Position numbers and translations under genes: made by a program | Shown here: positions 7,502-41,072 of the stretch, piece by piece | Layout: every line of letters begins with the position of its first letter | How positions within the stretch are numbered: position 1 is the first letter of the stretch | The notes under the pieces: model-generated | Told to the model about the DNA's origin: nothing | What the model saw: only the letters and a program-made list of their open reading frames with translations | The model's database searches: none | Assembly (NCBI GenBank): GCA_007121775.1 | Contig: SKJY01000097.1 | Location: 5,138-69,137 of the forward strand | Length of the DNA stretch: 64,000 bases | Direction: 5' to 3' | From: Gemmatimonadota bacterium | GTDB taxonomy: Bacteria; Gemmatimonadota; Gemmatimonadetes; Longimicrobiales; Gaopeijiaceae

Positions 7502-8455
7502 TCAGTGGATCCGGGACGCCCCGGCGGCGGACCCATCTCCCCTTGAACGCCCCTTTTCAATCGCCGCCGATGGGGTTGACGAAGAGGCTCGAAGCCGGGT
7601 GGATGGAAATACCGGGAACCGCCGGGAACCACCGCCCTCCCGCACCTGCCGGAGAGAATCGCGAGCCCCGAACACGTGAACTCGCTCCGCCACCGCCCCG
7701 TGCCGTTCGGGCTCGAAGAGTGACACCAGCGACATCACCCCCGCCCGGACCCGCGCCAGGAGTTCCCGCGTCTCGGTCACGCTGTCCGGAACGGGGAGGT
7801 CCAACCGATACCTCTGCCGTCCGGAAACGTCCACGGCGCGACTCAGGGAGATCCTCTCGCCGTCCACCCAGGATCGGTCGCCTGAGTGGAATGCCATCGC
7901 CAGAGCCTCTTCCAGCGCCGGCGACGGATGATCCCAGGGGACGTCCACCAGCACCGCCGCCGAATCCGCGTCGAGTAGGAGGGAGATCACCCCATGACCT
8001 GGCACCTCGACTCGGATAGCGGCTCCCTCATGGGGGTCGATATCCTGCACGATATCCCGGAACCCGAGACGAAGGAGGAGGGGCCGGGTGAGGGCTCCGA
8101 AGCCCGTACGATTGAGCACCTTCAGAGCCATGGCGAACCCCATGCGCCGAACCGACTGAGGGTCCTGGTCCAGATTCGATCGGATCCGCTCCACGGCAGA
8201 GGCCAGAACCCACCCGAGGAGGACCACCGGTCCATCGGGATTGAAGAGTCGAACCTCTCCGCTGCCAAGATCGAGAATCCGCCCTTCCCCCCCCGGAGAT
8301 GCGGTCAGAACCACTCCCAACCCCAGGTCCTCCGCCCCTTGGGAGGGCGCCGACCCCGAAGGAGGTCGGTACCGGAGAATGGCTCGCTCCAGGGAAATCT
8401 CGCAGGCTCCGGTAAGGACGACATCTTCCGAGGAACCAGTGGAGAGGGGCGTCAT
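7502..8455 (-). CDS. Hypothetical protein (317 aa), no recognised family
   Basis: Long ORF with protein-like composition (…LLGWVLASAVERIRSNLDQDPQSVRRMGFAMALKVLNRTGFGALTRPLLLRLGFRDIV…). The ATG at 8453-8455 overlaps the upstream small ORF as ATGA. The C-terminal ~50 aa are low-complexity and may be read-through. Confidence 0.6.
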   Translation of the reverse strand: MTPLSTGSSEDVVLTGACEISLERAILRYRPPSGSAPSQGAEDLGLGVVLTASPGGEGRILDLGSGEVRLFNPDGPVVLLGWVLASAVERIRSNLDQDPQSVRRMGFAMALKVLNRTGFGALTRPLLLRLGFRDIVQDIDPHEGAAIRVEVPGHGVISLLLDADSAAVLVDVPWDHPSPALEEALAMAFHSGDRSWVDGERISLSRAVDVSGRQRYRLDLPVPDSVTETRELLARVRAGVMSLVSLFEPERHGAVAERVHVFGARDSLRQVREGGGSRRFPVFPSTRLRASSSTPSAAIEKGRSRGDGSAAGASRIH

Positions 8456-8712
8456 GGCAAGGTCTCCTGGGGCAGGTGTCTGGGGGCGTCCAGGTGTTCG
8501 GGAATCGGGTCGAGAGAGTCAGGTCGGAAAGGTCTCGACCAGGAGTCGACCTCGGCGGCGGTCCCCCTCCATTCGAAGTCGTACCCTGTCTGGAAGGGGA
8601 CGGCGACCATAACCAAGGGAGGCGTCACCGGGCAAGCGCCTCTATCCAAGACTCCGGAGGGCCATTCCACCCGCTTCCTTGATCCCGCACCCACACCCGG
8701 ACATCTTTCCAA
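8452..8712 (-). CDS. Possible small protein translationally coupled to 7502..8455
   Basis: ATGA stop/start overlap with the downstream gene. GC3 is high from the internal ATG at 8610 (MVAVPFQTGYDFEWRGTAAEVDSW...). The listed TTG start at 8712 would leave only 11 nt before the divergent ORF, so the true start is probably internal. Confidence 0.3.
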   Translation of the reverse strand: MERCPGVGAGSRKRVEWPSGVLDRGACPVTPPLVMVAVPFQTGYDFEWRGTAAEVDSWSRPFRPDSLDPIPEHLDAPRHLPQETLP

Positions 8713-8807
8713 TGCCCTGACCGTTGGAATCGTCCCCGGCGCCGCCCTCCCACTTCCCTTCTATTCTCGGCCTTCCTTTGAGTGCAGAACAGCCTCACCG
8801 TCGCTCG

Positions 8808-9566
8808 GTGGGCTTCATCGACCACGAAGGCGAATCCTGGGCCTGTTTCCTGGTCACAGGTCGAAGCCGGGCCGGACGCTGGACCGGCCACTTCTCCTTC
8901 CGTCGCCGCGACGGAAACCCGGATGAAGGCGAGGAGATCCGCACTGCCGACATCTTCGTGGAGGAATCCGAGGGCGAAATCGACCGGAAGGCCAGGGCGC
9001 TGGGGCGTCCACTTCTGGCCGGGCTTCTCGCTTCCGCCCTTCACACCCAGGAGCGGAGGGAACGAAACCCACCGCGTCTGAGACAGTGGTTCCGGGACAT
9101 CCTCCGTTCCAACGCCCGGGAGATCTCGGGCGAGTGGGAGGAGGATGACCTTCAGGTCACGGCGAGGACGGTGGGTGAACTGCGCTCCATCTATTCCTCC
9201 TACCGGATCGATCAGGTGGCTCACTTCATTTCCCTGGTGAACCCGGAGGCGTTCCAGGAGGCGGTAGAGGAGATTCTCTCAGGAGAGAGCTTCGACTTCA
9301 GTGCCCGAGACCGCCTCCAGTTCGCCATGATGGTGGTCGAGCGCATCGAAGGTATGCTCCCCCTTCCTCCATTTGAGCTCTGGGTCAGAGACTACCTTCG
9401 TAACGAACACGCCTACCGGATCTACACCCATGCGCTGCATCGCAAGGGGCCTTCCCCCGGAACGGACCCGGGAGGGGATCCACTGGATCCCTCGGAATCC
9501 CTGCCGAACCGTTCGGAAGCACCGGTCGCCGAACGGGATGTTGATGATCCGGCTTCAAATGACTAG
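8808..9566 (+). CDS. Hypothetical protein: N-terminal unknown domain plus C-terminal 'LPPFxLW' domain
   Basis: (M)GFIDHEGESWACFLVTGRSRAGRWTGHFSF... then ...ELRSIYSSYRIDQVAHFISLVNPEAFQEAVEEIL...MLPLPPFELWVRDYLRNEHAY. There is no ATG near the 5' end. Candidate starts are TTG 8724 (listed) or GTG 8808 (chosen because it leaves a plausible divergent promoter region). Confidence 0.6.
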   Translation: MGFIDHEGESWACFLVTGRSRAGRWTGHFSFRRRDGNPDEGEEIRTADIFVEESEGEIDRKARALGRPLLAGLLASALHTQERRERNPPRLRQWFRDILRSNAREISGEWEEDDLQVTARTVGELRSIYSSYRIDQVAHFISLVNPEAFQEAVEEILSGESFDFSARDRLQFAMMVVERIEGMLPLPPFELWVRDYLRNEHAYRIYTHALHRKGPSPGTDPGGDPLDPSESLPNRSEAPVAERDVDDPASND

Positions 9567-9934: not shown

Positions 9935-11008
9935 TCATGCTTCCCGTTGGGCACTGTCCAGATAGGCGCTGAACACATCCCTCTGACGAGCCCAGGCGTG
10001 TGCCTCCTCGGCATGGATCACGCCCTCCATGAGCAGATCCATGAGGTGCTGGTCCAGGAGCTGATTGCCGGACTTGCGTCCGGTCTGGATCAGCGCCGGG
10101 ATCTGATGGATGCGCTCTTCCCGGATCAACTGGGCCATAGGTCCGTTCACATTCATCAGTTCGAGCCCGAGCACGCGGCCTTCGGTGGAATCCTTCCGAA
10201 GAAGCACCTGCGCCACGACCCCCCGCAGGTTATCGGCCATCATTCCCAGGATCCTGGGCCGCTCCTCCCGAGGGAAGGCGGCGACGATCCGGGACAGCGT
10301 CTTCCGCACCGATGCGGTAGGGAGGCTTCCCAGCACCAACACGCCGGCTTCACTTGCCTCCAGCGCCAACTCGAAGACCTCCGCCCCGCGGAGTTCGTGG
10401 ACCATCAGGACATCCGGGTCTTCCCGCACGGCAGAGCGGAGGCCCGCGGCGACGGATGCCACGGTGCGACCCACCTCCCTCTGCTGGATCACGGAGCGCC
10501 CGGGCGGCAGAACGAACTCCACGGGATCTTCAAGGGTGATGATGTGCCGTGGATGATTTCGCGCAATCTGTTGGAGCAAGGAAGCCATGGTGGTTGACTT
10601 TCCCGCCCCCCGAGGCCCGGTCACAAGCACCACCCCCCGTTCCAACCGAGCGAAGTCACTCACCGCCTGAGGAAGTCCCAGATCATCCGGTTCCGGAATC
10701 CCATGGGAGACGATTCTGATGGCGGCGGCAACCCCCTGGTCATGCCGGAAGATGTGGACCCGGAAGCGGGCCACACCTGGGATCTCATGGGCGAAGGTCG
10801 CCTCGAACCCGTCCGCGAACTCCTTTCTCACCGCCTCCGGCTGGATCTCCGAAAGCATCTCCCTGATGCCTTCGGCGTCGGTCACATCCCACGAAAGCTC
10901 CCGGAGATCCCCGAACCGCCTCATCATGGGTCTTCTGTGAGGAGTCAGGTGGAGATCGGAGCCTCCCTCAGCGACCACCGTTCGCAGAAGCTCATCCATT
11001 CGGTGCAT
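9935..11008 (-). CDS. PilT-family (type IV pilus retraction-like) hexameric ATPase, non-canonical His box
   Basis: MHRMDELLRTVVAEGGSDLHL...Walker A GPRGAGKST, Asp box IITLEDPVEF, Walker B EDPDVLMVHELRG, PilT C-terminal motif MAQLIREERIHQIPALIQTG. Starts are at 11008 or 10999, and either overlaps the upstream gene (stop at 10992). Confidence 0.9.
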   Translation of the reverse strand: MHRMDELLRTVVAEGGSDLHLTPHRRPMMRRFGDLRELSWDVTDAEGIREMLSEIQPEAVRKEFADGFEATFAHEIPGVARFRVHIFRHDQGVAAAIRIVSHGIPEPDDLGLPQAVSDFARLERGVVLVTGPRGAGKSTTMASLLQQIARNHPRHIITLEDPVEFVLPPGRSVIQQREVGRTVASVAAGLRSAVREDPDVLMVHELRGAEVFELALEASEAGVLVLGSLPTASVRKTLSRIVAAFPREERPRILGMMADNLRGVVAQVLLRKDSTEGRVLGLELMNVNGPMAQLIREERIHQIPALIQTGRKSGNQLLDQHLMDLLMEGVIHAEEAHAWARQRDVFSAYLDSAQREA

Positions 11009-12356
11009 CGGTGACCTCCCTGCCTGATGCAGGCGTCGAGGATGAAGGCACCCTGGAGTCCAACGGTGCCGCTCTGCGGAGGACCCATCCTGGTGCCAGG
11101 TCGCCGTCCGACGGCCTCCAATCCAAGGTCCATCCCACCCCGGAGAGCGCAGGGGGGTAGGTCCCGGGAGCCGCTCCGGTGGATCGGGCGGCCCAGACGA
11201 AAACCGCCGACGCGAGACTCCGGGCAGCGGGCCAGGCCACGGGATTACCCAGTTCGACCTCCACGGAGACCGCATCGAAGCGGAACTCCTCAAGTTCCTT
11301 GAGGCGTCGGGCAGTTGCCCCTTCCGGGCCATCCAACGGAAGCGCCAGGACACCGGGGAGAGGCGATGACTGGACTTCCCTGCGGCTGAGATGAAGGGAC
11401 CGATGGCCCTCCCCCAGAAGAAGCCCCGGCAGTCGAGGGAGAAGCTCCCGGGACATCCGCTCGGGACGGCTGCGAAGTTGAAGGGTCAATGGACCTGCCG
11501 CCAGCAGGAGCCGTAACTCCTCAATGGTCTCCCGATCCGGCTCCGGAACCTCATTCGATTCCTGGGAAGGCGACTCTCGGGGCGTGAGGAGCAGTTCGAA
11601 TCCCAGGGAGGTGGAAATCCCCCGAACCTCCACTACCCCGGACTGCCCGCCCTGCCGGATCTGTGCCAGCCAGGCGCCTTCCCCTCTAGCGGGGAGCCTT
11701 TCCCCAGGCGAGGGGGAGAGGATGCGCTCCAGCACGGCCTCCCAATCCGGCTTGAGCCGGTAACGGCGAACCTGCCCACCATCCTCGTACCAGCCGATCC
11801 CCCTCCCTTCCCGAACCGAGATACCCCAGCGCGGAGATCGTCCCATTCTGGCCAGGGAGCCCAATTCATCCAGGGATAAGGCCCGAGCCGCCATCATGCT
11901 CCCGGCCCCAGGGCGTTCCTGAACGAAGACCGTGCGGATCACCTCTCGAATCCGGTCTGGCGGCCCCAGGGCCAGATCCACCTCGAGCCCGACCCGGGCG
12001 TTCAGTTCCCTGGCGGCCTCGGTCTTCAGGGGCGAATCCACCACCAGCGTCACCCGGTCTCCGGAGCGGGCGATGGGTAGAGCGGTGTGAGCCAGCGCCC
12101 AGTCCACCGTCACCAGTCGGGCCACATCCGGATCCACAGCCGACGCTTCCGGAAAGACGTAGGGGAGGTTGTACTGCGATGCCAACCCCCACTCCACCTC
12201 CGAGGCTCGGACCAACCCCAACGCCACCAGCGCCTCTCCGAAAAGCCCCCCCTCCCGGCGCTGATGCGTCAGGGCTCGTTCGATCTCCTCCTCGGTGATC
12301 CGTCCTGCATCGAAGAGGATCCGTCCAATGTTCTTCCCGGTGCGCTCTCGTTCCAT
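10992..12356 (-). CDS. GspE/PilB-like pseudo-ATPase with N-terminal MshEN (T2SSE_N) domain
   Basis: The N-terminus carries two 24-residue MshEN-type repeats separated by 5 aa. The middle retains GspE N2-like strands (WYEDGGQVRRYRL, VVEVRGISTSLGFELLLTP). The Walker A position reads LQLRSRPERMS instead of GPTGSGKT, and no Walker B or His box is visible. Confidence 0.8.
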   Translation of the reverse strand: MERERTGKNIGRILFDAGRITEEEIERALTHQRREGGLFGEALVALGLVRASEVEWGLASQYNLPYVFPEASAVDPDVARLVTVDWALAHTALPIARSGDRVTLVVDSPLKTEAARELNARVGLEVDLALGPPDRIREVIRTVFVQERPGAGSMMAARALSLDELGSLARMGRSPRWGISVREGRGIGWYEDGGQVRRYRLKPDWEAVLERILSPSPGERLPARGEGAWLAQIRQGGQSGVVEVRGISTSLGFELLLTPRESPSQESNEVPEPDRETIEELRLLLAAGPLTLQLRSRPERMSRELLPRLPGLLLGEGHRSLHLSRREVQSSPLPGVLALPLDGPEGATARRLKELEEFRFDAVSVEVELGNPVAWPAARSLASAVFVWAARSTGAAPGTYPPALSGVGWTLDWRPSDGDLAPGWVLRRAAPLDSRVPSSSTPASGREVTDAPNG

Positions 12357-12384: not shown

Positions 12385-12810
12385 TCACGGGTGCCGCACC
12401 ATGATATGCCCCGTCACGGACGGGGCGTATCCATCCATGCGATACGGATAGATCCCCTCGGGAGCCCCCTCGAAGGAGAGGACCAACCGTGCCTCCGATG
12501 CTGTCAACGGGGGGGGAGCCAGTTGCCCCGTCCTCTCCAGAAAAGCCCTTGCCTCCGCAGTCAGTTCATCGGTCTCGAAGACCACCTGATGGACTCGGTG
12601 ACCCCGGATCTGGAACTGGACCAGATCGCCGGCGGTGACCTCCAGATACGCCGGGATCAGGCGGGTGACCTCTGCCGCGCCAGTGACCATGACCCGATGG
12701 ATCTGGACTTCATCGGCAATCCCCAACTCGGCACGGAGTTCCGGATCCGACGGAGGGTCGGGCCGATCGCAACCGGCGAGGAGGAAGAGCCCGACCGCGG
12801 CCATCGCCAT
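12385..12810 (-). CDS. Lipoprotein with cupredoxin-like beta-sandwich signature (no Cys ligand)
   Basis: Signal peptide plus lipobox MAMAAVGLFLLAGC. The body ...VTAGDLVQFQIRGHRVHQVVF...PEGIYPYRMDGYAPSVTGHIMV resembles plastocyanin/amicyanin-like domains but lacks the copper-binding Cys. Confidence 0.6.
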   Translation of the reverse strand: MAMAAVGLFLLAGCDRPDPPSDPELRAELGIADEVQIHRVMVTGAAEVTRLIPAYLEVTAGDLVQFQIRGHRVHQVVFETDELTAEARAFLERTGQLAPPPLTASEARLVLSFEGAPEGIYPYRMDGYAPSVTGHIMVRHP

Positions 12811-12821
12811 CCAGCCCGATC

Positions 12822-13880
12822 TCACTCCACCGCCGTTCCGCAGGCCAGACAGTAATTCCACCCCCGCTCCAAGACCTCACCACAGGATCGGCAGGGGAGG
12901 AGGAATACATTCGTGCCACAGAACGGACAGAACCGTAGATTGTCCCGATCGGGAAGTTCCGCGTCACACTCAGGACAGGCCTCCGGTGGGACCCCCAGAT
13001 TCACGCCGCGAGGAATCTCCATGACACGGTGGCGGACCACCTGTGTCTTCTTCTCCGCAGCCACCGGCTTCACCGCTGCACTCTCACGGGCCTCGCCTCC
13101 GGAAGGGGAAGACGCCTCGGGTTCGGACGGGCGGGGATCGGGGGAAGGAGAGTCGTCGGTTCGCCTTTTCTCCGCAGGAACAGGGGCCGGCTGAACTTCC
13201 GGAGAGGCGGCGGCTGATGGAAACTCAGCCTGCTGAGGCGGCGCTTGCTTTCGCCGCTCCGGGCTTCCCGTTGCCGGTCCCTCCGCCGTATCCCGGCGGG
13301 ACCGACTCTCGACCTCCGGAGCCGAGGAACCCTTCGGCGGAGCCTCATCCTTCTTCCGGGACGATCCGGTATCCGTCCCCAGGGCCTGCCCCAAGAGAGC
13401 GTCCAACCGGAGCTCCTCATCCGCCGAATCGAGGGCGCGCCCGACAAGCGCGTCCAGTTCCTCATCGCTCACCAGCGCACCCTGCTCGAACCCCCGGCGC
13501 TCCGGAGCGTCATCTGATCTGCCGGAAGACATGGTCTCAGGGATCTTGGCCGGGTTGAGACGCACGCCCACAGCAGCGTACTCACGGTAGAGTCCGGTAT
13601 TGGGGTGGGGCAGACCGGCCTCTCGCTCGAGCCGTTGACGAGCGGCGTCGGACTCCATGGTCAGGTAGTCGCCCTCCCCGGCGAGCAACCGCAGGAGGGC
13701 ATCCTCGTAATCCCCATTCATCTCCGCTCCGATCCGGTCCCGATGGGTCCGGTAGGGAACCAGCGTCTGGTAGATCTCTGCCACCGTGAAAGACGACTTG
13801 AGATACGAAGGAACCCTGCTACGGATCTCCTGCACCAGAACATGGAAGAAGCGGTCTACCAGAGACGGGTTGGTCTTCAT
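12822..13880 (-). CDS. Zinc-ribbon domain protein with a long disordered linker
   Basis: Start at MKTNPSLVDRFFHVL... (cat at 13878-13880). A conserved-looking ~110-aa N-domain is followed by a ~170-aa Pro/Glu/Ser-rich linker. The C-terminus is CPECDAEL...RFCPFCG...LPCRSCGEVLERGWNYCLACG, a double zinc ribbon. Confidence 0.75.
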   Translation of the reverse strand: MKTNPSLVDRFFHVLVQEIRSRVPSYLKSSFTVAEIYQTLVPYRTHRDRIGAEMNGDYEDALLRLLAGEGDYLTMESDAARQRLEREAGLPHPNTGLYREYAAVGVRLNPAKIPETMSSGRSDDAPERRGFEQGALVSDEELDALVGRALDSADEELRLDALLGQALGTDTGSSRKKDEAPPKGSSAPEVESRSRRDTAEGPATGSPERRKQAPPQQAEFPSAAASPEVQPAPVPAEKRRTDDSPSPDPRPSEPEASSPSGGEARESAAVKPVAAEKKTQVVRHRVMEIPRGVNLGVPPEACPECDAELPDRDNLRFCPFCGTNVFLLPCRSCGEVLERGWNYCLACGTAVE

Positions 13881-13950
13881 GGGGCACTCTTGGGAAGGAA
13901 ACGAAACGGACCGGATCACGAACGTTGAGCCGTTCAGGGCGGAGCCACCC

Positions 13951-15075
13951 TCAACGGAGGATTTCCAGGGCCAGGATGCCGGCGCTGGCCGCCCCCCTGA
14001 TGAGGGTCTCGGCATCCAATGGAGCGATCTCCACCCCGTATTCATCCCGCCAACGGCGAGCGAGGCGCCGCACGGCCCGGGGGATGGGCTCTACGGGCAA
14101 CCCCGCTGAATCCCGGAGACATCGCACTACCTCCTCCCACCCACCCCTGAAGACCCGGCCCCCTGCGGTGCGTACCTGGACCGTCCCCGCTGGATCCCTC
14201 GGCGGAGCTTCGGCGGGCGTTTCCGTATGGAAGAGTTCCAGTTGCAATTCGTCCTTCAGGGGCCAGTCACTCTCCGGAGCGAATCGCGACTCAACCTCGG
14301 CCAGCAGGCGTTCCACCGGATCGTCCTCCATGAGCTCCAACTCCCGAAGGCGCCGTCTCCACGGTCGGATGCCCAGGTCCCGGTCATCCACGCGTCTCAA
14401 GGAGCGCTTCAACTCGATGAGCCGCCAGACGCCCAGCGGGTCCCAATGTTCCGATGGAGGCACCATTTCGAACTGGTCCAGGGCGGCATCCCACTCTCCT
14501 CGATCGTAAAGGAGGTGACCAAGGTAGACGCGTACGTCGTGGAGGGACGGGTCCACTCGCAGGGCACGCCGAAGATACCGAGCAGCCCGGACCTCGTCTC
14601 CCATTCTGTGGAGACAATAGGCGGCTCCCGCCATGGCGTCCCCCACCTCGGGCCGGGCGGCGGCCAGACGGAGGAATACGTCGAGGGCATAGGCCATGAG
14701 TCCCTCACGATAGAGAGCCCGCCCCATGGTCAGCATGAGTTCCACATCGTCCTGAAAACCGAGCTGTTGTACCCTCCGGAAGAGATCCAGCGCCCCGTCC
14801 CGGTCCCCGGTACGGAGTAGCACCTCCCCCATTCCCACCATGGCGTCCTCATGGGAGGGATCCATGGACAGCGCCCGCCGAAACGCGGCGCCGGCCCATG
14901 CCACCTCCTCCCGGGCGAGTCTGGCGTATCCCATTCCCACCATTAGTTCCACAGCGTCGGGGAAACGGGAAAGACCCTCTTTCAGGGTCTCGAGAGCACC
15001 ATCGAAATCACCCTCGTTGTAGAGGGAGTGGGCCTGCTCGTCGTACTCTTCGGAACTCCAGAACTCCTCGTGCAT
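13951..15075 (-). CDS. Tetratricopeptide-repeat protein with a non-TPR C-terminal domain
   Basis: Start at MHEEFWSSEEYDEQAHSLYNEGDFDGALETLKEGL (cat at 15073-15075). Repeated A..Y..AL..DP TPR units cover ~230 aa. A ~140-aa C-terminal region follows with no recognised motif. Confidence 0.8.
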   Translation of the reverse strand: MHEEFWSSEEYDEQAHSLYNEGDFDGALETLKEGLSRFPDAVELMVGMGYARLAREEVAWAGAAFRRALSMDPSHEDAMVGMGEVLLRTGDRDGALDLFRRVQQLGFQDDVELMLTMGRALYREGLMAYALDVFLRLAAARPEVGDAMAGAAYCLHRMGDEVRAARYLRRALRVDPSLHDVRVYLGHLLYDRGEWDAALDQFEMVPPSEHWDPLGVWRLIELKRSLRRVDDRDLGIRPWRRRLRELELMEDDPVERLLAEVESRFAPESDWPLKDELQLELFHTETPAEAPPRDPAGTVQVRTAGGRVFRGGWEEVVRCLRDSAGLPVEPIPRAVRRLARRWRDEYGVEIAPLDAETLIRGAASAGILALEILR

Positions 15076-20258: not shown

Positions 20259-21827
20259 TCAGCGGATCCGGGGCTTCAGCGTGGCCACCGGGACGATCAT
20301 CTCCTCCGGGGAGATCCCCCCATGCAGGAAGGACTCCCGGTAGCGGTTCTGGTACTCCCTGAGCTTCGTGGGATACACCATGAAGTAATCTTCCACCCCG
20401 ATGACATAACTCAAGCCCAGACGCCCCGGTGGGAGGCGCAGGTCAGCCGGGTCTCGGGTGCGCAGGACAGTACGGGCGTCCTCGGCCCGGAGATCCTGCC
20501 CGAACTTGTAACGCAGGTTTGAGGTGGCGTCCCTGCGGGCGAAGACGGTTGTGGGCCGACGGCAGAGGATGGAGCCATGGTCCGTGGTGAGGACCACATT
20601 CAGCCCCTCTCGCGCCGCCTCCCGGAGAATCTGAAGGACCCCGCTCCGCTCGAACCACGCCCGGGTCAACTCCCGGAGTGAGATCTCGTCCCGAGCCATC
20701 TCCATGAACACGGGGGAGTCGGACCGGGAGTGGATGAGGGTGTCCATGAAGTTGAAGACCAGGGCAATGACCCCGACCCGGTTCCGCACGGCCGACAGGA
20801 TCCGGGCGCGGGTCTGCTCCGCGTCCCGGTCCGAGAAGACCTTCTCATAGTGGACGGGAACATCCCGGCCGGTGAGTCGCCTCAGTTGTGCCTCCAGGAG
20901 CCGGTCCTCGAAAGCGTTCAGGCTCCCCTCATCGTCCTGGCGCTCCCACCACCCCGGGTTGGATCGGGCGATCTCGTTAGGGAACTGACCGGAGAAGATG
21001 GCGTTCCGGGCGTAGGGCGTGGCGGTGGGGAGGATTGAGAAGTGCAGTTCCTCGTCCACGTCGAAGTCCGATGTCAGCAGGGGGGCAAGGACCCGCCACT
21101 GATCCAGGCGCATGCAGTCCAGGACCACCAGGAAGACCGGATCATCGCCCAGGAGGGGGAGGACGAAAAGCTCCACCAGATCGGTGGAGAGGACTGGAGC
21201 CTCCTCGGCACCCCGCATCCACTGGGGGTAGACCCGCCGCACCCAGTCCCCGAAGTCCCGGCGGAGCTCCTGCATGAGGGAGTCCACCGTGGCCAGAAGG
21301 CCGTCCTCTCCGGCGGCCCGGAGGCGAATGTGCCAGTCCACCAACTCGCTGTAGAGGGAGGCATAGTCGTCGGGACGCTCCGCATCCTGGCGGAGCCACC
21401 CAAGCTGGGGAAAGCGTTGGGCAAAGTCCTGGGCCACCTGCTGCTGGCGGATGGATGACCCCTCCAGGATCCGTGTCACCACCGAGAGGAGCTGGAGCGG
21501 ACTTGTGGGCTTCACCAGGTAGTCGTCCACCCGCCGCCCAATGGCCTCGGTCATGGTCCGATCCTCTTCGGACTTGGTGATCATGACCACCCGGGCGTTG
21601 GGATCGTGTCGGCGAAGCTCTTCCAGCACCTCGAGTCCGCGGCGCCCGGGCATCTGTTCGTCCAGGAGCACCAAGTCGTAGGGCTGTTCCGCCAGAAGAG
21701 CGAGGGCGTCGTCCCCGTTGGCGATCCCATCCACCTGATAGCCCCGTTCTTCCAGGAAGAGGCAGTGGGGCCGGAGGAGGTCGATCTCATCATCGACCCA
21801 GAGGATGCGGCGGGATGGTCTGGTCAT
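20259..21827 (-). CDS. Response regulator with C-terminal PglZ (alkaline-phosphatase-superfamily) domain, PorX-like
   Basis: REC domain: RILWVDDEIDLL...DLVLLDEQMPGRRG...VVMITKSEE...DDYLVKP. PglZ-like: ...FLVVLDCMRLDQW...SILPTATPYARNAIFSG...VLTTDHGS. Start at MTRPSRR (cat at 21825-21827). Confidence 0.87.
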   Translation of the reverse strand: MTRPSRRILWVDDEIDLLRPHCLFLEERGYQVDGIANGDDALALLAEQPYDLVLLDEQMPGRRGLEVLEELRRHDPNARVVMITKSEEDRTMTEAIGRRVDDYLVKPTSPLQLLSVVTRILEGSSIRQQQVAQDFAQRFPQLGWLRQDAERPDDYASLYSELVDWHIRLRAAGEDGLLATVDSLMQELRRDFGDWVRRVYPQWMRGAEEAPVLSTDLVELFVLPLLGDDPVFLVVLDCMRLDQWRVLAPLLTSDFDVDEELHFSILPTATPYARNAIFSGQFPNEIARSNPGWWERQDDEGSLNAFEDRLLEAQLRRLTGRDVPVHYEKVFSDRDAEQTRARILSAVRNRVGVIALVFNFMDTLIHSRSDSPVFMEMARDEISLRELTRAWFERSGVLQILREAAREGLNVVLTTDHGSILCRRPTTVFARRDATSNLRYKFGQDLRAEDARTVLRTRDPADLRLPPGRLGLSYVIGVEDYFMVYPTKLREYQNRYRESFLHGGISPEEMIVPVATLKPRIR

Positions 21828-21891
21828 GGAGTCCAAGCTACCGGGTGGGGGCCACCGGGCCAAGGCGAAAGTCCACCACGCCCCGCCGGGT

Positions 21892-26709: not shown

Positions 26710-28416
26710 TCAGACCAGGAAGGCGTGGTCCACGTACTCCTGAAGCATCCGGCGGCAGTGGAAGTGCGCGCCGTTCAGAGCGATACAGGAGCGCATGATC
26801 CTTGCCCATCCATCGGGATCACGGTGGAAGATGGGAAGGATGGTGTCCTCCAGCTTCCGCACCATTGAGTCGAACTCCCGTTCATCATCCACCGGTGACT
26901 GCCAGCTCTCGTCCACTGACCAGCCGGTCACCCCTTCCACGTGGCCCTCGATCCACCAGCCATCGAGAATACTGAGGGAAGGTATTCCGTTCATGGCCGC
27001 CTTCATCCCGCTGGTCCCCGACGCCTCCAGCGGCTTTCTGGGCATGTTGAGCCAGAGGTCACTCCCGGCAGTGAGCAGCCCTCCAAGCTTCATGTCGTAG
27101 TCCTCCAGGTAGACCAGGGAGAGATCGTCTCCCAGATCGTGACCGGTACGCACCACTTGGCGGATGAGCTCCTTGCCGGGTTCATCTCGGGGATGGGCCT
27201 TCCCGGCATAGATGATCTGGAGGGGTCCGCCCCGCCGGACCACCTCTCGTAGACGGTCCGGTCTGGACACCACCAGGGCCGCCCGCTTGTAAGGTGCAGC
27301 CCGTCGTGCGAACACCATGGTGAGGCGGTCTGGCCGCAGCTCACGGCCCGTCCGCCGCTGAACCTCACGAAAGAGGGCATCCCGGGATTCGGCGTGGGCA
27401 GCGCGGAGTTCATCGGTGGGGATGGCCACGGCGTGGCGAAGGATGAAGGGATTCTTCCGCCAGCCGGGGAGGTGGCGGTCGAAGAGAGCCCCCTGCGCTT
27501 CCCCGATCCAGGTGTTGGCGTGGACCCCGTTGGTGATGGGGTGGATGGCATGGCCCGGGAACATCCCCTGGGACACACCGGCGTGTCGGAGGGCCACGCC
27601 GTTGGTGAAGCGAGCGAACCGAAGTGCCAGGTGGGTCATGTTCACCTGCTTGTCTTCCACCGCTCCGCTTGCCTTCAGGAGGCGCCCCATTTCGTCACCC
27701 AGGACCTCCCGAACCATCTTGAAACGGAAACGGTCGTGCCCGGCGGCCACGGGGGTGTGGGTGGTGAAGACACAGACCTTCCGGACCGCCTCCACCGCCG
27801 ACTCCAGTGCGGCCGGCTCGGAATCGGCCACGACACCCTGCTCCCGCAGTAGCTCAACGGCCAGAAGGGCCGCATGCCCTTCATTCATGTGGAAGGTACC
27901 GATCTGATCACGCCCGAGGGCTCTCAGGAGCCGTACCCCCCCGATCCCCAGGATCGCCTCCTGGCGCAGGCGCAGACGCTCATCCCCACCGTACAGATGG
28001 TTCGTGATGGCCCGGTCGTCGTCTCGGTTCTCCGGCAGATCCGTGTCCAGGAAGTAGACGGGAACCTGGTGGTTGTGAACGCCCTGGATGGTGTAGCGCC
28101 AGGCCCGAACCCGGACCGGGCGCCCCTCCAGGGTCACCTCCACCACAGGTTCCACCGGCTCGAGTTTTCGATCCGGGTCCCAGGGCGCGGGAGACTCACT
28201 CTGACGGCCGTCCGCTCCAATGGCCTGGCGGAAGTACCCCAGTCGATGGACCAGCGTGATCACGCTGAAGGGGAGGCCCATATCGGCGGCCCCCTTGGCG
28301 GTGTCGCCGGCCAGAACCCCCAGACCTCCGCTGTAGGTGGGGATCTCCGACTCGAGCCCGATCTCCATGGTGAAGGCGGCGATCTCGGGCATATGCTTGG
28401 CGGATCCAGACTCCAT
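26710..28416 (-). CDS. glgP: Alpha-glucan family phosphorylase (GT35)
   Basis: MESGSAKHMPEIAAFTMEIGLESEIPTYSGGLGVLAGDTAKGAADMGLP...NHLYGGD...FHMNEGHAA...FTTHTPVAAGHD...ASGTSGMKAAMNG is the short-form GlgP signature with the PLP-Lys region. An alternative ATG is at 28392. Confidence 0.92.
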   Translation of the reverse strand: MESGSAKHMPEIAAFTMEIGLESEIPTYSGGLGVLAGDTAKGAADMGLPFSVITLVHRLGYFRQAIGADGRQSESPAPWDPDRKLEPVEPVVEVTLEGRPVRVRAWRYTIQGVHNHQVPVYFLDTDLPENRDDDRAITNHLYGGDERLRLRQEAILGIGGVRLLRALGRDQIGTFHMNEGHAALLAVELLREQGVVADSEPAALESAVEAVRKVCVFTTHTPVAAGHDRFRFKMVREVLGDEMGRLLKASGAVEDKQVNMTHLALRFARFTNGVALRHAGVSQGMFPGHAIHPITNGVHANTWIGEAQGALFDRHLPGWRKNPFILRHAVAIPTDELRAAHAESRDALFREVQRRTGRELRPDRLTMVFARRAAPYKRAALVVSRPDRLREVVRRGGPLQIIYAGKAHPRDEPGKELIRQVVRTGHDLGDDLSLVYLEDYDMKLGGLLTAGSDLWLNMPRKPLEASGTSGMKAAMNGIPSLSILDGWWIEGHVEGVTGWSVDESWQSPVDDEREFDSMVRKLEDTILPIFHRDPDGWARIMRSCIALNGAHFHCRRMLQEYVDHAFLV

Positions 28417-28622
28417 GGTCCAGCACTCCGATAAAGGATTCGTGGGTCGGACCCATGAGGAAGGGTCCGGCCGTCCATGCGGGGTCTTAGTCACACTCCC
28501 CGGCGTCCCCGAGGTTTCGGTCGGATCCACCGGTTCAGGAGCCCCCCCACTTCACTCTCCGGGAGGAACCTCCGAGATTCGTGTGGCTCCGGGTCCCCGA
28601 GAGAACACCTGTCGCCACCTCC

Positions 28623-30731
28623 ATGATCCCGCACTCCCAAAGAAAGGAATCCACTGCAGTGAGTCCACCTTCTTCTTCGTCCGCCTCCGCGACCCCCAAG
28701 CCCAAGGAAGGCAGACTGCGGGTCCGCATCGAGAACATTCAGCCCCAGATCGACGGCGGCAGCTTCCCTGCCCGGGGGATCGTGGGCGACCGGTTCCATG
28801 TCGAAGCCGACATCTTCGCAGATGGCCACGATCGAATCGAGGCCCGCCTCCTCTATCGTCGCCTGGGCGCCCGGCGTTGGAGCGAAGCGCCCATGGAATT
28901 GCTGGGCAACGACCACTGGGTGGGCTCGTTCGATCTGGAGGAGTTGGGCGTCTACCAGTTCATGGTGGAGGGGTGGGTCGACCCCGTCACCACCTGGTGC
29001 TCGGAGCTGGAGCGATGGATCGAGGCCGGTGCCGACATCTCCCTGGAACTCCAGGAGGGGGCGGTACTTCTGGAGCGGGCGGCAGGGCGCGCCAAGGGTG
29101 ATGCCTCCCGGGAGTTGATGGGATGGGTGGAGAAGCTGAAGGGTTGGTCCCAGGATCCTGCCGTCCTCGCCGATCCGGAGGTCCTCCTCCAGGATCCCAT
29201 CCGCCTCACCGAGGCCGTCCTCCCTCTCTATCTCCCTTGGGCCGATCGCTCCTGGTCGACTCGGCCCCGACGGAGCCTGTCGGTGCGGGTGGACCGGGAG
29301 AGAGCCCGCTTCAGCTCTTGGTATGAGTTCTTCCCCCGGTCCACATCGGCTGAGGCGGGGGTGCACGGGACCTTTGCCGATGCCGCCCAGGCGCTACCTC
29401 GAATTCGGGACATGGGCTTCGACGTGGTCTACCTCCCCCCCATCCACCCGGTGGGTCATACGAACCGGAAGGGGCCGAACAACCGGGTCGTCTCGGCCCC
29501 TGGGGACCCGGGGAGCCCCTGGGCTATCGGCGGACCGGAGGGAGGGCATACCGCCGTCCACCCCGACCTGGGCACTCTGGATGACTTCCGCTCCTTCCGG
29601 GAGAGAGCCGAGGAACTGGGGATGGAGGTAGCGCTGGATGTGGCCTTCCAGTGCTCTCCCGACCATCCCTGGGTCAAGGAGCACCCCCAGTGGTTCCGGC
29701 ACCGGACGGACGGATCGATCCGCTACGCTGAGAACCCTCCCAAGAAGTACGAGGACATCTACCCAATCGACTTCGAGACCGACGACTGGGAGGCGCTCTG
29801 GGACGGGCTCCGGGATGTCTTCCTCTTCTGGATGGATCAGGGGGTGCGGATCTTCCGGGTGGACAATCCCCACACCAAGGCCTTCCCCTTCTGGGAGTGG
29901 TTGATCCAGGAACTCCTGGCTGCGGATCCCGGGGTCATCCTCCTCTCGGAGGCCTTCACCCGGCCCCGGCGCATGTATCATCTGGCCAAGGTAGGCTTCC
30001 ACCAGTCCTACACCTACTTCGCCTGGCGTGACACCGGCCCGGAGCTTGCTGAGTACATGCGGGAACTCCAGAGCCAGGGTGTGCGAGAGTTCTTCCGACC
30101 CAATTTCTGGCCCAACACGCCGGATATCCTCACGGAGACGCTCCAGACCGGAGGGCGCCCCGCCTTCATGGTGCGGCTGGTGCTGGCCGCTACCCTCACC
30201 GCCAACTACGGGATCTACGGCCCCACCTTCGAACTCCTGGAGCACATCCCGCGGGAAGAGGGGAGCGAGGAGTATCTGGATTCAGAGAAGTACCAGCTCC
30301 GGAGTTGGGACCTGGACAGACCCGGAAACCTCACCGAGTTCATAGCCCGGGTGAACCGGATCCGACGAGAGAACGCTCCCCTCCAGCGGAACGACGGGAT
30401 CCGGTTCCATCCCTCGGACAACGAGACGCTCCTGGTGTTCAGCAAGTCGGCCCCGGAGGTCGAGGATCGCATCGTGGTGGTGGTGAACACGGACCACCGA
30501 TTCGTTCAGAGTGGGTGGATCGACCTGGACCTGGCTGCGTTGGGGCTTGAGGGAGTGGGGGAATACCAGGTTCACGACCTGCTGGCCGGTGGCCGCTACA
30601 CTTGGAGTGCCGGGCCCAACTTCGTCCGACTGGACCCCGGTGTGTGTCCGGCTCATATCTTCAGGATCGAAGCTCCGGCCACCGGGATCGGGACCGCCCC
30701 GGGAGCGCCGGCCTCGGAACCCCACGCCTGA
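28623..30731 (+). CDS. glgE: Alpha-1,4-glucan:maltose-1-phosphate maltosyltransferase
   Basis: ...[36 protein letters not shown]...[13 protein letters not shown]...[13 protein letters not shown]...GSPWAIG...[10 protein letters not shown]...[14 protein letters not shown] are hallmark GlgE motifs. Confidence 0.93.
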
Positions 30732-30831
30732 ACTCACTGTTGAAATAACCCGGGATGTGCCGACTCCACGGCCATCCTCATCGCAACCCGCCCCTCACCA
30801 AGGGGCTTTTCACCCCCGGAGACCTTACTCC

Positions 30832-33800
30832 ATGCCCCGTAGATTCGGCTCCGCTGCCCGGGCCATCGATACCGAAGCCCCCGTCCTCTCCGATGATCCC
30901 CAGTGGTACCGGGACGCCGTCATCTACGAACTCCACGTTCGCTCATTCAAGGACTCGAACGGCGACGGGATCGGCGATTTCAAGGGCCTCACCAGCAAGC
31001 TGGACTATTTGGAGGAGTTAGGGGTGACGGCGCTCTGGATCCTCCCCTTCTACCCGTCTCCCCTCCGGGACGACGGGTACGACATCGCCAGCTACCGGGA
31101 GGTAAACCCGGATTACGGCACCCTGGAAGATTTCCAGCACTTCCTCTCCGAGGCCCATCGGCGGGGACTGCGGGTCATCACCGAGTTGGTCATCAACCAC
31201 ACATCGGACCAACACCCCTGGTTCCAGCGGGCCCGCCGGGCGCCCAGAGGGAGCGCGGAGCGGGACTTCTACGTCTGGAGCGACGACCCCGAAAAGTATG
31301 GGGACACCCGGATCATCTTCCAGGACTTCGAGCCCTCCAACTGGAGTTGGGATCCGGTGGCGGGCCAGTACTACTGGCACCGCTTCTACCATCATCAGCC
31401 CGACCTGAACTTCGAAAATCCCCGGGTCCAGGAGGAACTCTTCTCCATCCTGGATTTCTGGCTCGAGATGGGGGTCGATGGGCTCCGCCTCGACGCCATC
31501 CCGTACCTGTACGAACGGGAGGGGACAAACTGCGAGAACCTCCCGGAGACCCACGACTTCCTGAAGAAGCTCCGGGCCCACGTGGATGCGCACTTCCCGA
31601 ATCGGATGCTCCTGGCGGAAGCGAACCAGTGGCCCGAGGACGCCGCCTCCTACTTCGGCGACGGGGACGAGTGCCACATGAACTTCCACTTCCCCCTCAT
31701 GCCGCGGCTCTTCATGGCGGCGAGGATGGAAGACCGCTTCCCCATCCGGGACATCCTGGACCAGACGCCGGAGATTCCCGAGGGGTGCCAGTGGGGCCTC
31801 TTCCTGCGGAATCACGACGAACTGACGCTGGAGATGGTGACCGACGAGGAGCGGGACTACATGTACCGGGTCTATGCCGAAGACACCACGGCCCGGATCA
31901 ACCTGGGGATCCGCCGGCGCCTGGCCCCACTCCTTCAGAACAACCGCAGGCAGATCGAGCTCCTGAACTCCCTTCTCCTCTCCCTTCCCGGAACTCCCAT
32001 CCTGTACTACGGGGACGAGATCGGGATGGGCGACAATTTCTACCTGGGAGACCGGCATGGAGTACGGACCCCCATGCAGTGGGTGGGAGACCGCAATGCG
32101 GGCTTCTCGGTAGCCAACCCCCAGCGCCTCTTCCTCCCGGTCATCATCGACCCGGAGTACCACTACGAGGCGGTGAATGTGGAGGCCCAGCAGCGCAACC
32201 CCACCTCCCTGTTGTGGTGGATGCGTCGGATCATCGCCCTCCGCAAGCGCCACCAGGCCTTCGGACGGGGGTCCCTGGAGTGGGTGGAACACGACAACGG
32301 GAAGGTGGTGGCCTACCTTCGCCGCCATGAGGAGGAGACCATCCTGGTGGTGGCCAACCTCTCCCGCTTCGCCCAGCCCGTGGCGCTGGAGCTCGGGGCC
32401 CATGCCGGCCGGGTGCCCCTGGAACTCTTCGGTCACACCGCCTTCCCGGAGATTGAGGACGACGAGCCGTATGCCCTGACCCTGCCGCCCCACGGCTTCC
32501 TCTGGTTTGCCCTGGAAACGGAAGAAGCGCTCCGGGATCGCCGGGAGGTCCCCCCTGCGGCGGAGCGCGATCCCGGTCGCCTCGTGGCCGTCCGTTCGCG
32601 GCGGCGGTGGGATGATGTTCTGGAGGGCCGTCGGCGCCGGAAGGTGGAACCGCTCCTGGTGGAGTTCCTCCGGGGGCAGCGCTGGTTCGCCGGAAAGGGC
32701 CGGGTGATCCGGAAGGGTGAGATCCTGGACGCCATACCGGTGGGCCCCGACGGAGTGGTTGGTAGCCTGGTGCTCCTGGAGGTGGAGTACGTGGCGCAGG
32801 ACCCGGAGATCTATCTGATCCCCCTGGCCCACGCCCAGGGCGATGAGGCGGTGGAGGTGGTGGAAGAGCGCCCCGGGAGCGTGGTCTGGCGAGCCGTGGT
32901 GGGCGAGGGTGACGGAGAGGAGGGGGTGGTCTTCGACGGATCTTTCGATGCCGACTTCTCCCGGCACCTCCTGGACACGGTGGCCCAAGGGACTCAGCTC
33001 GCGGGAGATCGGGTGGGGCTCCGTGGCATTCCCCTGATTCCCGCCCAGGAGATCCTTGGCCAGGGAGACGGGGACCGGACTCCGGTCCCTGGCAGGGCAG
33101 AACAGAGCAACACCTCGGTGGTCTTCGACCGGGAACTCATCCTGAAGCTCTTCCGGCGCATCGAAACCGGAATCAACCCGGACCGGGAGATCGGGCAGCT
33201 TCTGCAGGAGGTGGGCTTCGACGGTACCCCCGAGATGGTGGGGGCCCTGGAGTTCGAGGGAAGGGAGCGGGCCCGGGCCGCCTGCGCGGTGGTGCACCGC
33301 TTCGTGCCAAACCAGGGCGATGCGTGGGAGTACACCCGAGACGCCCTGGGGCGGTACTTCGAGACGGCGCTGGCCTCGGACTCGGAGTTGGAGGAACTCC
33401 CCCTGGCCGGGGACATCCTGGCGCTGGCCAGGGAGCGGCTGGCCGGCTCTGAACTCCCCGAAGAGACCTACCGCCTCATCGGCGGCCCCTATCTGGATTC
33501 GGCCCGGCGAATCGGAGCCCGAACCGCCGAACTCCACGTGGCGCTGGCATCTCGCCCGGACAACGAGGCCTTCCGCCCCGAGCCCTTCTCCACCCTCTAC
33601 CAGCGGTCCCTCTATCAGTCCATCCGGAATCTGCTGGGCACGTCGCTACAGGGGTTGGCCTCCCGGATCAGCGCGCTGGGCGAGGAGGAAGCGGAGATGG
33701 CCGGGATGATCCTCCGTTCCCGCCCCCGACTCCTCGAGCGCTTCCAGGCCCTCCTGGAGCGGAAGTTCGATGGGCGGCGGATCCGGGTCCACGGGGATTA

Positions 33801-34350
33801 TCACCTTGGCCAGGTCCTCTTCACCGGGAAGGACTTCCAGATCATCGACTTCGAGGGCGAGCCGGACCGCCCCATCGGTGAGCGCCGCATCAAGCGGTCG
33901 CCCTTGAGGGATGTGGGTGGGATGCTCCGCTCCTTTGACTACGCCGCCTGGGCCATCCTCCGAGACCTCCCGGAACAGGGGCTCATCTCCGACGCAGCCG
34001 ACCCCCGGGCCCGGCGTCTCGCCCGTTTCTGGAGCGGGTGGGTGTCGGTGGAGTTCCTGGCCGGATATCTGGGGACGGAGGGGATCCAGGCGCTCCTGCC
34101 GGTGCGCTCCCGGGCCCAGCGTCGCCTGCTGGATCTGTTCATTCTGGAGAAGGCCCTCTACGAGCTCCGCTACGAGTTGAACAATCGGCCGGACTGGGCC
34201 TGGATCCCCCTCTCGGGAATTGTGGGCCTCCTGGAGGAGGGCGAACTGGCCGCAGACGCTGATGTGTCCACCATCCCGGGAGACAGGAGGTCCGCCCATG
34301 GCGGGCCCACCGGCTCCGGAGACGAGGGGGAGGGCCAGGTTGACTCCTGA
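30832..34350 (+). CDS. treS: Fused trehalose synthase / maltokinase (TreS-Pep2)
   Basis: The N-terminal ~560 aa are a GH13 TreS domain: [26 protein letters not shown]...[12 protein letters not shown]...[10 protein letters not shown]...[11 protein letters not shown]...[11 protein letters not shown]. The C-terminal ~550 aa are a maltokinase-type kinase: ...[20 protein letters not shown]...[15 protein letters not shown]...[11 protein letters not shown] at 30832. Confidence 0.93.
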
Positions 34351-37300: not shown

Positions 37301-38419
37301 CTCTTCGAGCACTCGGACCCGCGTCAGGGTTTCCACCCGGATTGGGAGAGCGCCATCTTCAACTATGGTCGGAACGAGGTTCGTTCCTTCCTCCTCAGCA
37401 GCGCCCTCTTCTGGCTTGAGCACTACCATGTGGATGGAATCCGGGTGGATGCAGTGGCTTCCATGCTCTACCTGGACTACTCCCGCAAGGAAGGGGAGTG
37501 GATCCCGAATCGGTTCGGAGGAAGGGAGAATCTGGAGGCCATCGACTTCCTTCGCCGACTGAACACCGAGATCTACGCCGCCTATCCCGACGTCCACACC
37601 ATTGCCGAGGAATCCACCGCCTGGCCCATGGTCTCCCGCCCCACCTACGTGGGAGGCCTGGGGTTCGGGATGAAGTGGGACATGGGGTGGATGCACGATT
37701 CCCTCCAGTACATCTCCAGAGATCCGATTCACCGCCGACACCATCATGAGGAGCTGACCTTCCGGGGGATCTACGCCTTCAACGAGAACTTCATGCTCCC
37801 CCTCTCGCACGACGAGGTGGTCCATGGGAAGGGGTCTCTCCTGGGTCGGATGCCTGGCAACGACTGGGAGAAGCGGGCCAACCTGCGGCTGCTCCTGGGG
37901 TGGCAGTACCTGCAGCCCGGGAAGAAGCTACTCTTCATGGGCGGTGAGATCGGTCAGTGGAAGGAGTGGAATCATGAGAGCGGGTTGGACTGGCACCTGC
38001 TGGACGATCCTGGCCACCGGGGCCTCCAGCGTCTGGTCCGGGACCTGAATCGGTTGTACCGTGGAGAGCCTTCTCTCCACAGCTCGGACTTCGAACCGGA
38101 CGGTTTCCAATGGATCGATGCCAGCGATCGGGACCAGAGTGTCCTGGCTTTCCTCCGAAAGGAGCCGAGCGGGGATGCGCCTCCGGTCCTGGCCGTCTTC
38201 AACTTCACTCCGGTTCCCCGGCAGAATCACCGGATCGGGGTGCCGAAGGGGGGGCGGTGGGCCGAGGTGCTGAATACCGACGCCGCGGCCTACGGTGGCG
38301 GTGGGTGGGGGAACCTGGGGGGAGTGGATGCCGTGCCTATCCCCTTTCATGCCCAGGATCACTCGGTGGTCCTGACGCTGCCCCCCCTCTCCATGTTGGT
38401 GCTGAGGACAAAGGGCTGA
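34298..38419 (+). CDS. Single ORF encoding 4-alpha-glucanotransferase (GH77 MalQ) fused to 1,4-alpha-glucan branching enzyme (GH13_9 GlgB)
   Basis: ATG at 34298 with AGGAGG at 34285-34290. MalQ part: ...[20 protein letters not shown]...[18 protein letters not shown]...[15 protein letters not shown]...GEDLGTVP...THDTPP. A Pro-rich linker follows (~36400-36530). GlgB part, from [24 protein letters not shown]: ...[10 protein letters not shown]...[12 protein letters not shown]...[15 protein letters not shown]...IAEESTAWP...[10 protein letters not shown]. There is no in-frame stop between the two halves. Confidence 0.85.
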
Positions 38420-38477
38420 TCCGGGGCTACCTCCCCGGACTGGGAACTCCCCTGGAACGAGCAATGAGTCGGGAATC

Positions 38478-40979: not shown

Positions 40980-41072
40980 CCTGCGCGGCTCTGGAAGTTG
41001 TACTGAGTGAGCCGGACCACCGGCCTCACCACCTCCACCCTTTCCAATCCACCACCTGCTTCCGGGAGATCC

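Follow-up and report, generated by a model that had tools for sequence, protein, structure and literature searches.

A conserved MshEN protein with a degenerate PilB-like core encoded beside pilT in Gemmatimonadota

Control of type IV pili by cyclic di-GMP (c-di-GMP) is so far known mainly through the extension ATPase, either by way of the MshEN domain of active PilB or MshE or by way of FimX and PilZ proteins. MshE of Vibrio cholerae, PilB of Myxococcus xanthus and PilF of Thermus thermophilus share an N1 region in which 5 residues separate two motifs of 24 residues, followed by an N2D domain and a RecA-like C-terminal domain (CTD). The same N1, and by predicted fold the same order of domains, is found in a protein that we call MshENp, encoded on a stretch of 64,000 nucleotides (hereafter the window) from a Gemmatimonadota bacterium (assembly GCA_007121775.1, contig SKJY01000097.1, positions 5,138 to 69,137), and these three ATPases are its best structural matches. 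Unlike them, MshENp has no Walker A, Asp box, His box, catalytic Glu or Cys4 zinc motif, is about 150 residues shorter and shows no detectable sequence similarity to them past residue 150. As far as sequence can show, it is thus a catalytically dead, PilB/MshE-derived protein, and its gene is immediately followed by one for a PilT-family ATPase. The new elements here are an MshEN receptor on a dead motor core partnered with PilT, and a lineage-specific PilT whose His box has lost its histidines. No description of such a pair was found in the literature on MshEN, PilB cofactors or pseudo-ATPases in type IV pili.

Several other systems resemble this arrangement in part. In the archaellum, the RecA-like protein FlaH, whose catalysis is impaired, partners the hexameric secretion-superfamily ATPase FlaI; FlaH differs from MshENp in that it is KaiC-like, keeps Walker A, binds ATP and has no second-messenger domain. 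The FimX-PilZ-PilB system of Xanthomonas and Pseudomonas (PMC8389850, PMC5595344) follows a shared logic of a non-catalytic c-di-GMP-binding protein acting with a type IV pilus ATPase, but its receptor folds are degenerate EAL and PilZ, its target is PilB rather than PilT, and its receptor is not derived from a motor. PilU, like MshENp, is a motor-family paralogue encoded beside pilT, and reportedly works only together with PilT (PMC6762196). It does, however, belong to the PilT clade, is active as an ATPase and lacks an MshEN domain, whereas MshENp is PilB-like, inactive and equipped with a ligand-binding domain. In NfrB and other MshEN fusions the domain likewise serves as a portable c-di-GMP input module (PMC5013675), and the NfrB model NF008411 partially matches MshENp; the output in those fusions is a glycosyltransferase or similar and not a dead ATPase core.

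The identity of the N-terminal domain of MshENp, which the original prediction had recognised from its repeats, is supported both by sequence profiles, with scores well beyond chance, and by predicted fold. The proposed layout of 24, 5 and 24 residues is exact (residues 9-32, 33-37 and 38-61). NCBIfam model NF053729 ('c-di-GMP_motif', 53 positions) matches residues 10-60 with 44 bits against a cut-off of 38, and Pfam MshEN (PF05157) matches residues 62-147 (E 1.7e-15; 57.2 bits, cut-off 23.1), the latter being confined to this part since only the C-terminal subdomain is modelled in Pfam. A phmmer search of the PDB returned PilF GSPII domains, MshE-N and PilB-N, only within residues 7-150. The whole-protein AlphaFold2 model, built with 46 family sequences, has a mean predicted local distance difference test score (pLDDT) of 81.7 and reaches about 90 over residues 10-145. 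Its four-helix bundle and alpha/beta subdomain match c-di-GMP-bound MshE (5htl) and PilF GSPII-B (8pdk, 8pfa) in Foldseek with target-normalised template modelling (TM) scores of 0.80-0.83.

In MshE and PilF the ligand is contacted by the backbone of h2, G3 and x4, by Leu clusters and by Gln24 (PMC11731258). The corresponding positions in the two motifs are the most conserved part of MshENp. All of 72 family members have G3, L6 and Q24 in both motifs, and I/L (motif I) or F (motif II) as h2; G10 is kept in 99% (motif I) and 85% (motif II), and L21 in 97% and 96%, respectively. Overall, these members with their 97-100% conserved ligand-contact positions are only about 36-53% identical. The leading Arg, already reported missing from both copies in the window, is absent family-wide, as motif position 1 is never Arg. 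This is not disqualifying, since Neissner et al. (PMC11731258) showed that a Leu or Lys there permits binding and even promotes high affinity, and widened the consensus to R/K/L. In motif II the first residue is L in the window protein and Y, F or L across the family, which agrees with the wider consensus. Motif I begins with N in the window protein and with T, N or S in the family, and R or K stands one residue before it (position -1) in 59 of the 72 sequences; Asn as first residue is allowed for only by the relaxed search pattern [RKPN] of Wang et al. (PMC5013675). Judged from these motifs, MshENp likely binds c-di-GMP.

The remainder of the protein can be recognised by its predicted structure. 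The AlphaFold model of residues 156-432 (pLDDT 89.4) shows an alpha/beta N2D-like domain followed by a beta-alpha-beta Rossmann-like domain, and the top 50 PDB matches in Foldseek are exclusively secretion-superfamily ATPases. The cores of PilF, PilB and GspE rank best (E 2e-11 to 1e-9, about 282 columns, which is the whole query), followed by PilT, PilU, BfpD, FlaI, CpaF and VirB11. The whole-protein model also matches PilB, PilF and GspE chains that lack an MshEN domain, over about 288 columns. The TM score of the core matches is only about 0.35, with a root-mean-square deviation of about 12 A, because the two domains are oriented differently from those of known ATPases; the claim is therefore one of the same domain folds in the same order and not of an identical conformation. 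In the middle of the protein, the strings WYEDGGQVRRYRL, ERLPARGEG and VVEVRGISTSLGFELLLTP, which had been taken as traces of an N2 subdomain, are present, and an N2D-like domain is recognisable in the predicted structure.

Motif loss points in the same direction. Where Walker A would be expected the window protein reads LQLRSRPERMS, as the original prediction had pointed out, the family consensus of the equivalent segment is RFxVTxxPxxLGxELLPHLP, and the pattern [GA]xxxxGK[ST] occurs in none of 146 family sequences; a mis-aligned P-loop was not found. MshENp contains no cysteine at all, so that the Cys4 zinc motif of PilB and GspE is absent. Sequence comparison of the core, in contrast to structure, remained without matches to real ATPases. 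Pfam gave none for residues 150-454, T2SSE (PF00437) included, even at E<=1. Global and local hhalign comparisons with a 71-sequence PilT alignment gave a probability of 0.1%, a PDB profile search with the MshENp family returned MshEN matches only and no T2SSE, and a profile of residues 156-432 run against 1.84 billion representatives retrieved only its own family. The homology of the C-terminal region to PilB/GspE ATPases is accordingly argued from AlphaFold models and Foldseek, and the proposal of an inactive paralogue, here read as a dead N2D and CTD core, is supported by predicted structure and motif loss, not by sequence homology.

Despite this degeneration of the motifs, MshENp is not a pseudogene, because its ratio of nonsynonymous to synonymous substitution rates (dN/dS) is low (0.04-0.22), its architecture recurs in 127 clusters, and invariant or near-invariant residues occur along its whole length. 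These 127 representative clusters were retrieved from the whole library with the C-terminal profile, and nearly all full-length matches among them have 400-425 residues, with a domain that begins close to residue 150. Searching with the complete protein yielded 76 homologues, all of about 420 residues, in which MshEN is the sole Pfam domain. A search with the N-terminal 150 residues alone returned seven fragments and no genuine PilB of the phylum, and is uninformative on the presence of a real PilB. The named homologues all come from metagenome-assembled genomes of Gemmatimonadota that bear the label Gemmatimonadales or Longimicrobiales; soda-lake sediments are the source of many. In JGI pipelines several members of the family carry the name 'type IV pilus assembly protein PilB'.

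The association with pilT extends across the phylum. Loci were collected from one genome per GTDB species, with partners located by tblastn with the window proteins; of the 80 loci obtained (numbered with the prefix L), one lies on a 2.9-kb contig that was binned as Planctomycetota, and all others are from Gemmatimonadota. A pilT gene lies immediately downstream of the MshENp gene on the same strand in 74 of the 74 loci that extend far enough, the other six contigs ending earlier. The two genes stay neighbours even in L083 and L084, the most divergent members, where they overlap by 14 nt and are 3 nt apart, respectively. The flanks, by comparison, are rearranged: another gene stands between the cupredoxin-like gene and the MshENp gene in 46 of 69 loci (an isopropylmalate/isocitrate dehydrogenase gene in L012, L083 and L084), and in 43 of 54 the downstream S21 gene and pilT lie over 2 kb apart. 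A survey of gene neighbourhoods, suggested with the original prediction, thus brought out a conserved pair. The overlap of stop and start on which translational coupling had been proposed is real in the window clade, described below, and in a few other loci where the genes overlap or nearly abut, but most of the orthologous pairs are separated by 20-100 nt.

Pfam scans found no pil or gsp gene among the long open reading frames of the window, and neither a prepilin-type signal nor a second T2SSE-type ATPase was detected in 1.37 Mb across 85 related loci. The reported absence of pilus and type II secretion genes from the neighbourhood therefore extends to all of these sequences, and in none of them does the pair sit beside a pilus locus. 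The conclusion once drawn from this absence, that the locus fits no described type IV pilus or type II secretion locus, is weakened, as in several well-studied bacteria pilT is not found together with the rest of the pil genes. A pilB-pilT(-pilC) gene order is known from Myxococcus and cyanobacteria. The order of MshENp and pilT matches it, which suggests that the pseudo-ATPase descends from the pilB of an operon of this type.

The PilT partner in the window is itself unusual. It passes the TIGR01420 PilT profile marginally (333.8 bits, cut-off 319.1; the canonical neighbour from L012 reaches 482.6) and matches PDB entry 3jvu with E 9e-73. It keeps Walker A, the Asp-box Glu, Walker B with the catalytic Glu and two Arg fingers (RFRVH, AIRIV), but the intact motor of the original prediction, which had overlooked this feature, has lost both histidines of the His box, reading EAGVLVLGSLPT where PilT has ETGHLVFGTLHT. 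The second His-box histidine coordinates the gamma-phosphate in PilB and mediates cooperativity between subunits (PMC5424180). About 70 other loci encode a textbook PilT with GPTGSGKS, TIEDPIE, DPDVILVGEMR and ETGHLVFGTLHT, and these canonical proteins are 77-93% identical to each other even where the MshENp pairs are only 30-40% identical.

Together with L082 (88% PilT identity) and with L001 and L081 (65-68%), the window forms a small soda-lake clade whose PilT is only 43-46% identical to all others. In a search of 5.8 billion proteins, five PilT clusters were found at 66% identity or more, after which identity drops to 47%. All four clade members lack both His-box histidines (EAGV[LV]V[LM]G[SA]LPT) and have a Walker A of the form GP[RQK]G[AT]GKS; the catalytic Glu is kept in the window and L082 (VHELR) and replaced by Asp in L001 and L081 (ISDLR). 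The C-terminal signature IHQIPALIQTGRK.G..LLDQH, common to the canonical Gemmatimonadota PilTs, is intact. The clade PilT is not decaying and is under purifying selection (dN/dS 0.12-0.17). Its rate relative to that of its neighbour is nevertheless inverted: outside the clade dN of PilT is about half that of MshENp, whereas within the clade it is higher (0.062 vs 0.033 and 0.26 vs 0.17). Identity of the clade to the rest is 35.8% for MshENp, compared to 37.6% between the sister group and the rest, while for PilT the corresponding values are 44.3% and 75.5%. As the drop is seen in PilT and not in MshENp, the sensor stayed the same and the motor was remodelled. The 17-nt gene overlap goes along with this remodelling. 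We rejected the idea that the divergent PilT is a displaced paralogue, because its nearest relatives outside the clade are the syntenic Gemmatimonadota PilTs (44-47% identity); the shared C-terminal signature, IHQIP..IQTG.K.G.QLLDQH, contradicts it as well.

For the function of the pair, the most economical reading, to which we give about an even chance, is that MshENp is a c-di-GMP-dependent regulator or adaptor of PilT, acting by direct contact or by competition for the PilC/PilM socket. On this reading a dead descendant of a PilB/MshE/GspE-type extension ATPase has kept the body plan of MshEN N1, N2D and RecA-like CTD, while its Walker A, Asp box, His box and zinc motif are gone and its c-di-GMP-contacting positions stay under very strong constraint. 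As a c-di-GMP receptor it could control or partner the PilT hexamer by direct binding. Alternatively, it might occupy the PilC/PilM docking site, over which, according to a review (PMC11656802), PilB and PilT probably compete. Either route would couple the level of the second messenger to pilus retraction, and in the window clade the two proteins would probably form a tight complex with altered or slowed ATPase chemistry. Some features weigh against a PilT regulator of this kind. Motif I has no stacking Arg, Lys or Leu at position 1 and carries Arg instead of a hydrophobic residue at position 11. The adjacency of the genes could have been frozen in place since an ancestral pilB-pilT operon. 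In addition, PilT diverged in the window clade and MshENp did not, which argues that the function of MshENp is not tightly dependent on the surface or chemistry of a canonical PilT.

This last point leads to the main alternative, unlikely but by no means far-fetched, in which MshENp is a c-di-GMP receptor whose output is unrelated to PilT, for example exopolysaccharide, and merely inherited its neighbour from the ancestral operon. MshENp is equally constrained beside a canonical or a remodelled PilT, MshEN domains occur joined to a wide range of unrelated outputs (PMC5013675), and PilB of M. xanthus has been reported as an exopolysaccharide signalling protein (PMC5544727). Such an origin, however, sits poorly with an adjacency that is kept in every informative locus, across about 36% protein identity and while both flanks were rearranged, and with an intergenic distance that is short or negative; invariant adjacency and short spacing are hard to explain without selection for co-expression. 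It seems quite improbable, on the other hand, that MshENp serves the pilus motor as a structural or adaptor subunit and no longer binds c-di-GMP, its motif positions serving only to maintain the four-helix bundle. The deviations of motif I at positions 1 and 11 would fit such a subunit, and non-binding, degenerate MshEN domains do exist, as in PilF GSPII-A (PMC11731258) and XpsE (PMC12943098). Yet both Gln24, both Gly3 and the guanine-stacking Leu clusters are fully conserved, NCBI's curated c-di-GMP-motif model is passed, and the R/K preceding motif I in most sequences stands against it as well. Hardly credible, finally, is an ordinary active PilB or GspE with a mis-aligned P-loop, or a decaying pilB pseudogene. 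The PilB names given to several members by the JGI pipelines speak for the former or the latter, but the lack of Walker A throughout the family, of a T2SSE profile match and of cysteines, together with the shorter length, contradicts an active enzyme, and purifying selection with invariant residues along the whole protein rules out decay.

Returning to the regulation of PilT by MshENp, a more far-reaching version of it can be imagined for Gemmatimonadota without a catalytic PilB, although we regard it as a long shot. In these organisms type IV pili would be run by PilT alone, and the pseudo-PilB, loaded with c-di-GMP, would decide whether PilT engages or in which direction it works (extension or retraction). 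If this were true, the pseudo-PilB would be a second-messenger-controlled clutch or gear made from a dead copy of the opposing motor, and the PilT of the window clade, with its lost His box, would hydrolyse slowly and be a nucleotide-dependent switch rather than a motor.

The features of the pair and of the genes upstream of it are collected in Table 1. Every peptide string quoted in the original prediction was found in its place.

Table 1. Positions of the MshENp-PilT pair, its motifs and the adjoining upstream genes in the window
Feature	Position	Strand	Remarks
Divergent PilT-family gene (357 aa)	9935..11008	-	most likely start ATG 11008, end 9935
PilT-like His-box remnant EAGVLVLGSLPTAS	10310..10351	-	
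PilT-like Walker B DPDVLMVHELRG	10385..10420	-	
PilT-like Asp box ITLEDPVEF	10514..10540	-	
PilT-like Walker A GPRGAGKST	10592..10618	-	
Overlap of MshENp stop and PilT-like start, 17 nt	10992..11008	-	GGAGG at ~11015-11019
MshENp gene (MshEN + pseudo-ATPase protein, 454 aa)	10992..12356	-	GGGAGAGG ~7 nt upstream of ATG
Degenerate RecA/P-loop-like CTD, ~residues 273-430	11067..11540	-	
Possible Walker-B relic FRFDAVSVEV, invariant D361	11256..11294	-	placed by secondary-structure order
Strand-loop-helix at expected place of Walker A, LTLQLR-SRP-ERMSRELLPRLP	11415..11489	-	placed by secondary-structure order
N2D-like domain, ~residues 160-260, invariant G178, S180, R182, W189, R198	11577..11879	-	
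MshEN C-terminal alpha/beta subdomain, residues 62-147	11916..12173	-	Pfam PF05157
c-di-GMP motif II, LFGEALVALGLVRASEVEWGLASQ, residues 38-61	12174..12245	-	conservation
Spacer RREGG, residues 33-37	12246..12260	-	
c-di-GMP motif I, NIGRILFDAGRITEEEIERALTHQ, residues 9-32	12261..12332	-	NF053729 match and conservation
Cupredoxin-like lipoprotein gene (LLAGC lipobox)	12385..12810	-	28 nt upstream of MshENp; syntenic; in most relatives another gene intervenes
Double-zinc-ribbon protein gene	12822..13880	-	syntenic in 71/80 loci
Cytoplasmic tetratricopeptide repeat (TPR) protein gene	13951..15075	-	syntenic in 70/80 loci

The window has a G+C content of 63-69% and opens with gyrB and recF. Its PilT-like protein has an exact counterpart (100% identity) on NCBI contig PULT01000133.1 (assembly GCA_003551025.1). 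The MshENp gene ends with TGA at 10992-10994, and two starts are conceivable for the PilT-like gene, ATG 11008 with GGAGG 6 nt upstream, giving an overlap of 17 nt, or ATG 10999, giving one of 8 nt. Both values lie at the ends of the range first proposed, and the longer overlap is favoured by the GGAGG and by NCBI's own gene calls on the identical contig. An Rfam search revealed neither a c-di-GMP riboswitch nor another RNA family, scans for promoters and terminators gave nothing beyond shuffled expectation, and tRNA scanning added nothing.

Upstream of the pair, the cupredoxin-like, double-zinc-ribbon and TPR genes lie head-to-tail on the reverse strand (12385..15075) and are syntenic in 69-71 of 80 loci; in relatives a cytochrome c gene is also present among them. 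The double-zinc-ribbon protein has a conserved N-domain and a Pro/Ala/Glu-rich linker. A five-gene system of TPR, zinc-ribbon, cupredoxin, MshENp and PilT was considered and rejected as unproven, a dehydrogenase gene being inserted before MshENp in most relatives. On the other side of the pair, positions 7502..9566 encode two proteins, of 317 aa (- strand) and 280 aa (+ strand), that match no Pfam or NCBIfam model; both are conserved beside the S21 gene, in roughly 50 of the 80 loci from Gemmatimonadota.

Further observations concern other parts of the window. A fusion of a response-regulator receiver with PglZ, of PorX-type architecture, is encoded at 20259..21863 (- strand) beside genes for an MsbA-like ABC transporter, a lipid A acyltransferase and glycosyltransferases of family GT2. 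A large alpha-glucan/trehalose cluster at 26710..42653 is rich in unusual fusions and includes a GlgE-like protein, a 1279-aa alpha-amylase/TreS-type protein with a maltokinase N-cap, a 1399-aa protein joining a 4-alpha-glucanotransferase to a branching-enzyme-like part, GH57 with DUF3536, and a fusion of HAD with trehalose-phosphatase. Two long open reading frames, 30511..34350 and 34220..38419, overlap by 131 nt, and their start sites are provisional. Two adjacent WYL-domain genes at 57370..59705 (- strand), one encoding HTH_PafC-WYL-WCX and the other a 456-aa WYL protein, form a PafB/PafC-like pair. A homologue of deoxyhypusine synthase (PF01916, E 2e-39) is encoded, in a bacterium, at 62479..63456 (- strand).

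For the annotation of these organisms, the PilB labels carried by members of the pseudo-ATPase family would falsely credit genomes with an extension ATPase in automated reconstructions of metabolism and motility, and the present finding corrects this. Genomes with a canonical PilT and the clade without His-box histidines provide a natural comparison for studying the role of the pair. A dead PilB that has kept its sensor and is locked to pilT across the phylum suggests a second-messenger route to pilus retraction, and would exemplify a motor paralogue that has turned into a regulator of the opposing motor.

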